From NCBI GenBank assembly GCA_028292105.1, contig JAQGMY010000102.1, positions 1 through 52,454 of the forward strand: a DNA stretch of 52,454 nucleotides. The letters run 5' to 3'. This document shows positions 10,932 through 51,776 of this stretch, in pieces (the stretch's first letter is position 1; each line of letters starts with the position of its first letter). Under the pieces are notes generated by a model, which was not told the DNA's origin, did not search any database, and saw nothing but the letters and a program-made list of their open reading frames with translations. The DNA comes from Ramlibacter sp. (GTDB taxonomy: Bacteria > Pseudomonadota > Gammaproteobacteria > Burkholderiales > Burkholderiaceae_C). Both the position numbers and the translations under genes were made by a program.

Positions 10932-10960
10932 GTAGGGTGTGCAAGCCCTGCTTGCGCACC
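10932..10960 (+). repeat. Single GTAG-type REP
   Basis: GTAGGGTGTGCAAGCCCTGCTTGCGCACC, same family as 46-73. Confidence 0.85.
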
Positions 10961-10981
10961 CTGCGAGCTCCGAGCTGGCTC

Positions 10982-39281: not shown

Positions 39282-39356
39282 GGTGTGCAAGCGGAGCTTG
39301 CACGCCCTACCGCGCCGTGCCGGGGTCGTAGGGTGTGCAAGCTTCGCTTGCGCACC
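39282..39356. repeat. Two GTAG-type REPs between convergent genes
   Basis: 39282-39310 (minus) and 39328-39356 (plus), same family as 46-116 but in the opposite relative orientation. Confidence 0.85.
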
Positions 39357-48403: not shown

Positions 48404-49720
48404 ATGAACGTGTTGCGGCTTCTCCCCCTGACTGCGGCGATCGGCCTGGCCCTGGCGGGACCGGCGCGCGCCGACAGCCTGCTGCAGATGTACGAGGCAG
48501 CGCGGGCGTACGACGCGACGTGGCAGTCCGCCAAGTCCCAATACGACGCCAACGTCGCGCGGGCCGACCAGGCGCGGGCCGGCCTGCTGCCGCAGGCGGC
48601 ACTGTCCGCGGGCGTCAGCCGCAGCATCATCGATGTCGACAACCCGCCGCAGGACCGCGCTTACGGCACCCAGCAGGCAACGATCAGCGCGTCGCAGCCG
48701 CTGTACCGGCCGGCCAACCTGGCGACCTACCGGCAGGGCCTGCGGCAGGCCGAGCTCGCCGGCTTCCAGCTCACCGCCGCCAGCCAGGACCTGATCATCC
48801 GCGTCAGCCAGGCCTATTTCGACGTGCTGGCGGCCCAGGACACGCTGGCCTTCGTGCGTGCGCAGAAGCAGGCGACCTCCGAGCAGCTGGCTTCGGCCAA
48901 GCGGAACTTCGAGGTCGGCACCTCCACCATCACCGACACCCGGGAAGCGCAGGCGCGCTATGACCTCGTGATGGCGCAGGAGATCGCCGCCGAGAACGAC
49001 CTGCGCGTCAAGCGGCTGGCGCTCGACACGCTGGTGGGCAGCAACAACTCGCAGCCGGCGCCGCTGGGCAACATCGACACCGTTCCGGCACCGCAGCCGG
49101 CCAATCCGGAGGCCTGGGTGGCCGCCGCCGAGACCAGCCCGGCCATCCTGCAGGCGCGCAGCGCCGTCGACATCGCCGAACTGGAGACGGAAAAGGCGCG
49201 GGCCGGCCACAAGCCCACGCTGGACCTGACCACCAGCTACGGCATCACGCGCAACTCCGGCAGTGCCACGGCCGCCCTGGAGAACCGCCCGAGAATCGGC
49301 TCCGCCGGCCTGGCCTTCAACCTGCCGCTGTTCTCCGGCTTCGCCACCCAGAACCGCATCCGCGAGACGCTGGCGCTCGAGGACAAGGCCCGCTCCGACC
49401 TCGAAGCAACGCGGCGCCAGGTGGCGCAGGCGGTGCGCACCGCCTACTTCGGCGTGGTCTCGGGGCAGAACCAGGTCAAGGCGCTGGAATCGGCGGAAGC
49501 CTCCAGCCAGAGCGCGCTGGACGCCAACCGACTGGGCTACCAGGTCGGCGTGCGCATCAACATCGACGTGCTGAACGCGCAAAGCCAGTTGTTCCAGACC
49601 AAGCGCGATCTCTCGCAGGCGCGCTACAACGTGCTGCTCGGCCACCTGAAGCTGCGGCAGGCCAACGGCACGCTGCAGCCGGAAGACCTGGCGCGTTTGA
49701 ACCTGCTGCTGGCGCCCTGA
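48404..49720 (+). CDS. tolC: TolC family outer membrane channel
   Basis: Signal peptide, AYFDVL, FEVG, GYQVGVRINIDVLNAQ. Confidence 0.93.
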   Translation: MNVLRLLPLTAAIGLALAGPARADSLLQMYEAARAYDATWQSAKSQYDANVARADQARAGLLPQAALSAGVSRSIIDVDNPPQDRAYGTQQATISASQPLYRPANLATYRQGLRQAELAGFQLTAASQDLIIRVSQAYFDVLAAQDTLAFVRAQKQATSEQLASAKRNFEVGTSTITDTREAQARYDLVMAQEIAAENDLRVKRLALDTLVGSNNSQPAPLGNIDTVPAPQPANPEAWVAAAETSPAILQARSAVDIAELETEKARAGHKPTLDLTTSYGITRNSGSATAALENRPRIGSAGLAFNLPLFSGFATQNRIRETLALEDKARSDLEATRRQVAQAVRTAYFGVVSGQNQVKALESAEASSQSALDANRLGYQVGVRINIDVLNAQSQLFQTKRDLSQARYNVLLGHLKLRQANGTLQPEDLARLNLLLAP

Positions 49721-49726
49721 GTTCAC

Positions 49727-49752
49727 AGGGTGTGCAAGCTTGCTTGCGCACC
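49727..49752 (+). repeat. Single REP with eroded GTAG end
   Basis: AGGGTGTGCAAGCTTGCTTGCGCACC just after the tolC stop. Confidence 0.82.
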
Positions 49753-49770
49753 CGCGGTGTTAGGATGCGC

Positions 49771-49896
49771 GCAGGTGCCGAGGGGCGCCTGCCCGCCAAA
49801 GAGGCCCTCACCCTCACGACGCTGATCATCCAAGCGACAGCAAGCCCAATCGTCTGACCTTAGCGGGAAAGGTCGACAACGATTCGGAGCCTTGTC
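49771..49896 (+). ncRNA. Candidate structured cis-regulatory RNA with pseudoknot, unassigned family
   Basis: Extended -10 TGTTAGGAT (49758-49766); hairpin 49771-49792; hairpin GACCTT/AAGGTC whose loop GCGGG is complementary to CCCGC at 49792-49796; AATCGT/ACGATT stem; outer pairing covers the GGAG RBS. Confidence 0.55.
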
Positions 49897-50481
49897 ATGT
49901 CCCTTGCCCCTTCCTCCCCCCTTTCCGTGGTCACCGGCGCCGGTTCCGGCAGCGCGGTGAACGCCTGCATCGGGGAACTGAAGATCCGTGCCCGCCTCGG
50001 GCTCAAGGCGCTGCGCAGCGGCGACCGCAGCCTGCTGGAACGCGCGGCCAAGGTCAGCGGCCGCAAGCCGCCCGAGCCCGCCGAGTGGAAGCTGCGCCAC
50101 GTGCTGGCGCTGGCCGCGCAGTCCGTCGGCTTCCAGCATTGGGACCATGCGCGCCAGGTGCTGGCGGGCGAGGCCAACGCCGGTGACGACATGGGCAAGT
50201 TCTGGCACGGGCCAGGCTGCGAAAGCCTGCTGAACCACTGGTTCGCTTCCTATGCGGACGCGGCGGCGATGCAGCAGGGCAAGCCGCGCACCACCGTGCT
50301 CACGTACGCAAGGCAGTTCGTCGTGGTGGACGCGCCCTACCTGCAAGCGATCGGCATCACGCAGCGCATCGAAGACGCGGCGACGCAGGGTTTCGATGCG
50401 GTGCGGGAATACGGCTCGGCGCGCTGGCTTGTGTGGTGCGACGCGCGAATGCGGGCGCCGGTTTCGACCTGGGTGCGCTAG
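49897..50481 (+). CDS. Hypothetical protein with ELK..A..L.K / LA...GF..W helical motif
   Basis: 194-aa ORF with GGAG RBS and genome-typical codons; motifs LALAAQSVGFQHWDH, LNHWFASY, QFVVV. Confidence 0.8.
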   Translation: MSLAPSSPLSVVTGAGSGSAVNACIGELKIRARLGLKALRSGDRSLLERAAKVSGRKPPEPAEWKLRHVLALAAQSVGFQHWDHARQVLAGEANAGDDMGKFWHGPGCESLLNHWFASYADAAAMQQGKPRTTVLTYARQFVVVDAPYLQAIGITQRIEDAATQGFDAVREYGSARWLVWCDARMRAPVSTWVR

Positions 50482-50485
50482 GAGT

Positions 50486-50533
50486 CATGGGTCCCGGGTC
50501 AAGGTTGTCATCCCGGGCTCGACCCGGGATCCA
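50486..50533. repeat. GTCATCCCGGGCTCGACCCGGGATCCA palindromic repeat plus truncated inverted partner
   Basis: Full copy 50507-50533; partial CATGGGTCCCGGGTCAAG 50486-50503. Confidence 0.8.
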
Positions 50534-51776
50534 TGCACCCTGGCAGCTTCAGCACCGCCTGCGCCGTCTTCTCGGCAGCCCCGCGGTGCGCGCCGGTGAA
50601 GCGCACCCCCGCCTCCACCGCAGCATCCCGCGCAGTCGCATCGCGCACCAGCGCCACGGCCTCGCGCACGCCCTCTTGCATCGAAGCGACACGCCGCGCC
50701 GCGCCGGCTCCTTGCGCCAGTTCGGCCGCGTCGCTGAAGTTGAAGGTGTGCGGCCCCATCACCACCGGGCAGCCGCACGCCGCGGCCTCGATCAGGTTCT
50801 GCCCACCCAGCGGCGCGAAGCTGCCACCGAGCAGGGCCGCATCCGCCAGGCCGTAGTACAGCGCCATCTCGCCCAGCGAGTCGCCGAGCCACACCTGCGC
50901 CGGCGCCGTGCGGTCGGTCCACGTGCTGCGGCGCCCGACGCTGAAACCCGCCTGCGCCACCAGGCCAGCGACTTCATCGAACCGTTGCGGATGCCGCGGC
51001 ACCAGCAGCCACTGCACGCCCTGGTGCCCCGCGATCGCCTGCAGGAATTGCGCCTCCTCGCCTTCGCGCGAACTGGCGAACATCACCACCGGCTGCGGCG
51101 ACGACGCCCGCCAGGCGCGGCCCTGCTGCAGCTGGACGGGGTCCGGATGGGCGTCGAACTTGAGGTTGCCGAACACGCCCTGCACCGCCGCCCCGGCTGC
51201 GGCCAGTCGGCGCGCATCGTTTTCGGTCTGTGCCCAGACCGCTCGGAGTGCCGCATAGGCCGGCCGCGACAACGAGGCCAGGCGGCGCGCCTTCACCAGC
51301 GACTTTTGCGACAAGCGCGCATTCGCCAGCGCCAGCGGGATGCCACGCTCATGACAGGCCGCCGTCATGTTGGGCCAGACCTCCGTCTCCATCAACACGC
51401 CGGCGCCTGGCTGGAAGTGATCGAGGAAACCACGGACGGCGGCCGGCGTGTCCCAGGGCAGCCAGGCTTGCGCATCGCCCTCGCGCAGCAGTCGCTTGCC
51501 TTCGGCACGCCCCGTGGCCGTGCCGTGCGTCAGCAGGATACGCAGGCCCGGTCGTGCGCGCCGCAACGCCTCCAGCAGGATGGCGGCGGCGCGGGTTTCG
51601 CCCAGCGACACGGCGTGGATCCAGAGCCGGCCCGGCTCGGTGGTGCCCTGGTAGCGGCCGAAGCGCTCCTCCACGTGTTCCAGGTAGCCGGGCTCCGCCA
51701 CTGCGCGACGCCGCAGCTTGCGCCGCAGCAGCGGCTGCGCGGCGATGACCAGCAGGGAGTAGAGGCGCCGGATCAT
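50508..51776 (-). CDS. waaA: 3-deoxy-D-manno-octulosonic acid transferase
   Basis: ERFG, WIHAVSLGET, LPWD, ETEVWPN, GNLKFD, VPRHPQRF, GGQNLIEAA, GPHTFNF. Confidence 0.96.
   Translation of the reverse strand: MIRRLYSLLVIAAQPLLRRKLRRRAVAEPGYLEHVEERFGRYQGTTEPGRLWIHAVSLGETRAAAILLEALRRARPGLRILLTHGTATGRAEGKRLLREGDAQAWLPWDTPAAVRGFLDHFQPGAGVLMETEVWPNMTAACHERGIPLALANARLSQKSLVKARRLASLSRPAYAALRAVWAQTENDARRLAAAGAAVQGVFGNLKFDAHPDPVQLQQGRAWRASSPQPVVMFASSREGEEAQFLQAIAGHQGVQWLLVPRHPQRFDEVAGLVAQAGFSVGRRSTWTDRTAPAQVWLGDSLGEMALYYGLADAALLGGSFAPLGGQNLIEAAACGCPVVMGPHTFNFSDAAELAQGAGAARRVASMQEGVREAVALVRDATARDAAVEAGVRFTGAHRGAAEKTAQAVLKLPGCMDPGSSPG

Follow-up and report, generated by a model that had tools for sequence, protein, structure and literature searches.

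Leader RNAs with a double pseudoknot are uncommon, and most of them are riboswitches or ribozymes; SAM-II and preQ1 are translational riboswitches with pseudoknots. According to the available sections of PMC10931766, the ribosomal proteins uS4 and uS15 also repress through pseudoknots, and the repression spreads via translational coupling.

The locus described here lies in a stretch of 52,454 nucleotides of Ramlibacter sp. DNA (the window), in which a leader RNA and the gene of a 194-aa protein are found between tolC (Pfam OEP, ending at 49720) and the convergent waaA (Glycos_transf_N). A preliminary description of this DNA proposed that a structured leader RNA, not described before, is associated with a helical protein and that the pair is inserted between these two genes. 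Family covariation, linkage and an empty Rfam search support the first part of the proposal. The insertion is borne out by 16 of 29 same-genus loci in other genomes, where the end of waaA lies about 160 bp or less from tolC (of the other 13 loci, two have a tolC-waaA gap of about 1.3 kb and 11 have no waaA inside the fetched DNA). The RNA and the protein are both single-copy in the window genome, and the window represents the minimal form of the unit, i.e. a predicted promoter, a 130-nt RNA and a single gene. Its features are as follows.

49727-49752 (also 48-73, 242-267, 439-464, 10934-10961 and 39330-39356): palindromic repeat family 1, about 130 copies genome-wide.
49758..49766, + strand: predicted extended -10 (TG-T-TAGGAT), from the sequence and the family position of TAnnnT.
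49772-49778 with 49785-49791, + strand: P1 hairpin, loop 49779-49784; core pairs 99.1% paired, with two-sided changes.
49780-49784 with 49811-49815, + strand: predicted pseudoknot PK1, GAGGG of the P1 loop with CCCUC; two-sided change in 5/5 pairs, 96.2% paired.
49792-49796 with 49863-49867, + strand: predicted pseudoknot PK2, CCCGC with GCGGG of the arm loop; two-sided change in 3/5 pairs, 97.9% paired.
49799..49810, + strand: AAGA, P2 and a conserved A; invariant columns, two invariant pairs and one covarying pair.
49836..49899, + strand: long 3' arm, the lower stem of which pairs over GGAG 49886-49889 up to AUG 49897-49899.
49897..49956, + strand: 20-codon SDR relic, an in-frame fusion with the protein; residues 9-20 have a pLDDT below 50.
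49957..50181, + strand: basic helical N-terminal module (residues 22-95) with ELKxRA...L..A...GF..W, ancestral GTG start at 49957.
50182..50481, + strand: C-terminal alpha/beta domain (residues 96-194), model pLDDT 94.7.
50507-50535, with a partial inverted copy at 50485-50503: palindromic repeat family 2, 24 genome copies, between the protein stop and the waaA end.

The two different palindromic repeats had been taken to bound the unit. Both are ordinary genome-wide repeats rather than boundaries, and they are not part of the RNA-protein system. Inverted pairs are frequent in family 1, three evenly spaced units of which, about 195 bp apart, lie at the window start.

Positions 49772-49899 are a member of a conserved leader RNA family of about 130 nt. 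In total 105 distinct copies were collected, from beta-, gamma- and alphaproteobacteria and one other phylum (the set excludes L118, which carries a long insertion). The order of parts is P1, CCCGC, AAGA, a 3-bp hairpin, ACCC, a variable linker and a long arm reaching the start codon, and the letters of CCCGC, the GCGGG arm loop, GGAG and ATG were confirmed at the positions listed. A 9-bp hairpin described earlier is indeed present from 49771, but the family supports a P1 of 7 bp, the loop of which forms a second pseudoknot; this PK1, missed in the preliminary description, has at least 4 bp in 105/105 RNAs. P2 is a 3-bp hairpin with a triloop, GAG 49801-49803 pairing with CUC 49807-49809. The tandem CCCTCAC-CCTCAC motif pointed out before turned out to be a coincidence of the 3' side of this hairpin and the PK1 strand, the GCC triloop that creates it being found in only 5/105 RNAs, and the proposed CGCT/AGCG stem falls in a segment that varies in length and sequence. 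The invariant AAGA/P2/A segment is a candidate recognition surface. Insertions of 35-100 nt between PK1 and the arm were seen at four loci (L118, L219, L005 and L026); several of them form hairpins of their own, and the core is kept.

The extended -10 that had been pointed out is present in the window, but it was missed by a -35/-10 scan. Across the family, 76/105 RNAs have a TAnnnT whose end lies 8-10 nt ahead of the invariant GG, against a background of 5/1050 positions; the spacing in the window is 7 nt. Since most copies have a -10 hexamer just before P1, the RNA likely begins the transcript, with a start at 49772-49774, the first P1 bases.

Folded alone, the window leader is only modestly stable (z -2.19; 6/200 shuffles equally stable). 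Across homologs the structure exceeds chance by a wide margin. In an alignment of 69 RNAs, which was built on a pseudoknot-free model, 89.7% of cells pair and 30/37 pairs show two-sided change. Slid-partner controls on the same RNAs gave 7-15 pairs with two-sided change and 37-50% pairing, and none of 500 shuffles equaled the observed covariation values. A second, independent MAFFT alignment of 49 close copies gave a like result, but PK2 was near invariant in it (two-sided change in 1/5 pairs), so that the support for PK2 comes from a few distant lineages. The variant pairs are UCCGC/GCGGA, CCCAC/GUGGG and CUCGC/GCGAG, with UCCAC/GUGGA found by eye, and the PK2 partner is unpaired within the predicted arm fold in 90/105 RNAs. 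Because CCGC was part of the patterns by which most of the RNAs were found, the conservation of this strand partly reflects the choice of pattern; the partner strand was not in the patterns. The pairing and two-sided changes of PK2 uphold the CCCGC/GCGGG pseudoknot of the preliminary description.

The arm showed two-sided changes in all 17 pairs of the fitted alignment, a count that is biased upward because the arm pairs were fitted, whereas a shuffle test of the opening of SD..AUG does not depend on the alignment. Opening costs a mean of 10.5 kcal/mol compared with 5.0 in shuffles, and is costlier than shuffles in 103/105 copies (p<=0.05 in 80), in line with the earlier statement that the base of the arm covers the RBS up to the ATG. 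For the window copy the values are 10.2 and 6.2 (p about 0.1). The lower stem is bulged and has many G-U pairs. Taken as predictions from aligned copies, these data support a conserved structured leader with two pseudoknots and an arm over the SD and AUG.

The protein accompanies this RNA closely. Starting from the protein, the leader was found at 48/52 loci; of the four exceptions, two have <650 nt upstream, one has a partial match and one is a true loss. Starting from the RNA, 61 metagenome pattern matches were obtained, from which the 49 scoring at least 60 bits were kept and the 12 under 60 bits dropped (some are near-duplicates). The protein lies downstream in 44 of these 49 model-confirmed matches, and the five exceptions comprise four with 155-1062 nt of DNA remaining and one with a 68-aa truncated gene. 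When 118 genomes of the genus were searched for each part separately, the same 11 turned out to carry both the full protein and strong RNA, a count that omits G502 (two module-only matches, E about 4e-4) and G521 (RNA at 25.8 bits, no P2). Co-occurrence of this kind can arise from physical linkage alone, and related genomes are not independent. An expression listing contained no genome that carries the RNA, and three runs from the same study had no cover of the leader; both results are uninformative either way. Reduced genes were seen behind intact RNAs at two loci, one keeping part of the C-terminal domain (L091) and the other a 68-aa stub with only the first helix (L077).

Of the 87 distinct RNAs that have the protein downstream, 34 are followed directly by its gene as first ORF, and in 50 the gene comes after 1-3 other ORFs (3 unresolved). 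Overlaps of 4 nt were found at 71/84 resolved junctions, although the chaining rule favors such starts, and in 47/50 resolved operons all junctions are <=15 nt, a layout of translational coupling from which two genomes depart. Whichever gene comes first, its working SD and start codon form the end of the RNA in every case. The cargo genes, which are repeatedly deleted, occur in varying subsets and encode an SDR (short-chain dehydrogenase), a GIY-YIG-like protein of ~120 aa and a MarR-like protein. The identity of the GIY-YIG-like cargo is based on one Pfam match (E 8e-4) and a GVY motif. In this protein (L012:2223-2591 and relatives) the GVY, a conserved Arg and usually a Glu are found, the second Tyr is mostly absent, and no Pfam family matches at threshold. 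An aldo-keto reductase gene is often close behind the protein gene on the same strand (L012:3504-4499 and many GIY/MarR-type loci), and may also be cargo. In a quick tree search (the thorough search is incomplete) the arrangements were mixed across clades, and the window protein grouped with those of L001 and L002 (SH-aLRT 94).

Two genomes depart from the usual order. In G151, an assembly that is 81% complete and 5% contaminated, the protein lies at the tolC-waaA site without RNA, and an RNA-GIY-MarR unit without protein lies on another contig, both contigs being short. This RNA resembles GIY-type copies (85%) more closely than the window RNA (72%), i.e. it is of another lineage. In G447 a protein gene is found just upstream of a promoter and RNA; the TTG start of this gene is doubtful and its stop lies within the RNA, so that the arrangement may be a recent accident. 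Both G151 and G447 fit action in trans. One protein gene lacks the RNA (L217). The G151 RNA (L132, G151:C93:5774-5910) has the rare GCC triloop that is also seen in the window, L001 and L003, and the protein clade of these three includes the only partner protein in G151; this one case may hint at a recognition contact or be chance. In G447 (L208/L215, G447:C1:2368788-2369435) the usual order RNA-GIY-MarR-protein is circularly permuted to protein-RNA-GIY-MarR, which resembles the outcome of tandem duplication and loss, or of a circular intermediate.

The 194-aa ORF does begin at ATG 49897, as described before, but its first 20 codons are a relic, and close homologs start at GTG 49957. Residues 1-20 match, at both the protein and the DNA level, the start of an intact SDR at L001, where the order is tolC-RNA-SDR-protein. 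Judged by this comparison of sequences, an in-frame deletion removed the SDR body from the window, and 20 codons of the gene persist as a fusion with the protein. Similar relics are present at L017, L021, L028, L045 and L119.

The model of the whole protein is confident (pLDDT 89) and has two parts, the helical module and the alpha/beta domain. Searches returned 43 close homologs and 519 representatives at E<=0.001. The mean net charge of the module is +4.2, and it is positive in 87/91 homologs, compared with a mean of -1.2 for the C-terminal domain; K29, R33, K37 and R67 are basic in 77-98% of homologs. The module is thus a candidate RNA-binding part, although a comparison with solved RNA-binding folds gave no informative match (best Z 4.5). 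Conserved residues of the C-terminal domain are G100, N113, W115, A122, Q140 and D167. The ORF had no match in Pfam, NCBIfam, PADLOC or PDB sequences (best PDB E 1.1), and in a structure search of the PDB the whole model reached a best Z of 4.5 and the C-terminal domain one of 3.6, with nothing informative among the matches. Among five proteins (the protein and its cargo) compared with the PADLOC anti-phage profiles, four had no match and the SDR had a marginal one (E 0.009). An Atlas search with the homologue P0019 returned unnamed clusters, with a Glyoxalase_8 lead of 0.83 and weak structural leads to ankyrin and GIY-YIG-fused proteins. Longer fused forms were sought, and the 81 matches held only proteins of 141-254 aa, which is weak evidence.

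Purifying selection acts on cargo-free units (dN/dS 0.07-0.32 across 10 pairs; the window gene is more weakly constrained, at 0.55), which suggests that the protein does more than regulate cargo. As the window has lost its cargo and the protein is its sole output, the C-terminal domain probably serves a separate function, as a sensor or effector.

Autogenous translational repression is, on balance, the probable mode of control: the protein would bind the folded leader through its basic module and hold translation of its own operon off. In such a scheme transcription would start at P1, the P1/PK1/P2 part would fold first, the arm loop would then dock on CCCGC (PK2), and protein binding would stabilize the closed form. 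A shortage of free protein would let the bulged lower stem open, and the first gene would be translated, followed by the coupled genes and the repressor. In a coupled operon, control exerted at the first start extends as far as the last gene. The partner gene can lie about 0.5-1.6 kb behind the cargo or off the transcript, a placement that speaks for a diffusible repressor and against an effect of the nascent peptide at the controlled start. If validated, the unit would be a compact translational switch for synthetic biology.

The main rival, an orphan translational riboswitch with the protein as the responding gene and some small molecule or ion setting PK2 docking and SD exposure, is unlikely. 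The compact tertiary architecture, the invariant unpaired bases at the 5' end of the transcript and the sequestered SD would be expected of one; the near-invariant unpaired AAGA and UCA also suit a small-molecule pocket, and SDR, MarR-like and aldo-keto reductase cargo or neighbors could share a stress theme, the genes behind the RNA being SDR, GIY-YIG-like, MarR-like or aldo-keto reductase genes, or none. However, SDR, GIY-YIG-like and MarR are each dispensable, and the association tracks one protein module and no pathway. Since the constant partner of the RNA is the protein only, the other genes being swapped or lost, autoregulation fits better. Module-bearing ankyrin, DUF1835 and Glyoxalase_8 genes with similar leaders also speak against a riboswitch. 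So does the search for a conserved alternative (anti-anti-SD) fold, in which none was found over shuffles (median p 0.51; 3/102 at p<=0.05); in the window copy an alternative hairpin is merely 1.2 kcal/mol less stable. Some riboswitches have no mutually exclusive alternative pairing.

The direction of control could also be reversed. PK2 excludes the SD, so the structure leaves the direction open to either sign. That the protein activates, opening the lower arm or freeing the SD in a positive feedback, or that the leader is released as a stable RNA-protein particle with a function of its own, is decidedly improbable. The default fold is already closed, so that a repressor may be unnecessary, cargo-free units are conserved, and a pseudoknot activates translation of repZ, as described in the available part of PMC8383071. 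Against these points stand the working SD and start codon on which the RNA always ends, which indicate control in cis, the absence of a second RNA copy from the window genome, and the further trigger that a positive loop needs. A switch independent of the protein, i.e. a thermosensor or a structure opened by ribosome loading and inherited by linkage alone, is very improbable: the bulged, G-U-rich lower stem and the protein gene without RNA at L217 would agree with it, but it leaves unexplained why the protein is retained through repeated cargo loss and why the tertiary core is conserved. Double-pseudoknot cores occur in small ribozymes, and such a core, the patchy distribution (11/118 genus genomes) and the permuted order in G447 might point to a self-cleaving ribozyme or a mobility signal of a small selfish cassette, but this is scarcely credible given the lack of an Rfam match, 14 pattern matches on viral contigs with a best score of 25.6 bits (none above 26), the single copy with generic repeat flanks, and a core at the predicted transcript start.

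The module is also found beyond this protein family. Its likeness to the N-termini of Glyoxalase_8 and ankyrin proteins, noted in the preliminary description, was recovered by HHalign (98.4% over 65 columns for ankyrin/DUF1835; 95.4% over 32 columns for Glyoxalase_8, the latter compared with 4 sequences only). A wider profile matched in 35/401 phylum genomes, mostly over the module only, and 14 module proteins scanned comprised 5 ankyrin, 4 DUF1835, 3 Glyoxalase_8 and 2 unnamed ones. Upstream of 12/24 module-bearing loci a simple parser, run with no shuffle control, found the same two-knot layout with P1, both complementarities and a purine-rich linker; the RNA model detects only the two nearest of these wider-family leaders, one of them weakly. 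The leaders of true Glyoxalase_8 genes (L160, L161, L163 and L164) seem rearranged, with a PK2-like strand after CCGC and the linker GGUGAAG, and were left unresolved by the parser.

It is possible, as a tentative extension of autogenous repression, that the module is a portable RNA-binding part fused to many unrelated domains, each with its own double-pseudoknot operator RNA, and that these are widespread one-component translational regulators. If so, the pair would be an RNA counterpart of a repressor-operator cassette, placeable on any operon and acting in trans, with release by a signal sensed via the fused domain or the RNA core. This would also assign a function to many hypothetical, ankyrin, DUF1835 and 'glyoxalase superfamily' proteins.

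As had been expected, Rfam 15 gave no match at or above the gathering threshold of its covariance models for the window, 20 homolog loci or 20 wider-family loci, and none on the leader. Within the full-text literature covered, the system is not described; that scope stops short of most subscription papers and of the supplements of PMC5737381 and PMC11109978, which could hold a similar motif. The available parts of PMC5737381, PMC11109978, PMC12370729, PMC8383071, PMC10931766 and bioRxiv 10.64898/2026.09.15.751765 contain no description of it. Two candidates were rejected as identities: EFASI, which the available part of PMC12370729 places as an enterobacterial RNA near STAXI and integrases, and the sul1 motif, described in the available part of PMC5737381 with sulfate-transporter genes and without an Rfam match here.

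Compared with known systems, the leader has most in common with those of the ribosomal proteins (uS4 of the E. coli alpha operon, uS15 of rpsO and uS8 of spc, as far as presented in the available part of PMC10931766). As in autogenous leaders, a pseudoknotted structure lies over the initiation region of the first gene, and a likely repressor is encoded later in a coupled operon, through which control would spread. Unlike them, the window protein is non-ribosomal and has no known second RNA target, its binding is a prediction, the cargo is exchangeable, and the pair is accessory, with a patchy distribution; nor does any Pfam, NCBIfam or PDB sequence match place the protein among repressors with rRNA-mimicking targets. 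The repZ switch of ColIb-P9 (Rfam PK-repZ; available parts of PMC8383071 and PMC12370729) likewise ties long-range pairing of a hairpin loop to translation initiation, whereas the leader here has two pseudoknots, no replication gene and no Rfam match. A compact, conserved and complex 5' domain beside an occluded SD is shared with translational riboswitches such as SAM-II and preQ1, but here the SD is hidden by a separate long arm instead of a pseudoknot, and there is no metabolic gene theme or known ligand. With the N-termini of Glyoxalase_8 (PF20066), ankyrin and DUF1835 proteins the window protein shares a homologous helical module, but its C-terminal domain is unrelated, and their leaders, missed by the RNA model, are similar in layout alone. 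PF20066 matched weakly in 20/91 family members (best E 0.0014), and the window protein had no match at its cut-off of 23.7 bits. The RNA family and the protein family appear to be uncatalogued, a double-pseudoknot leader tied to an unnamed protein module across distant bacteria, and their probable mode of action resembles a known kind.
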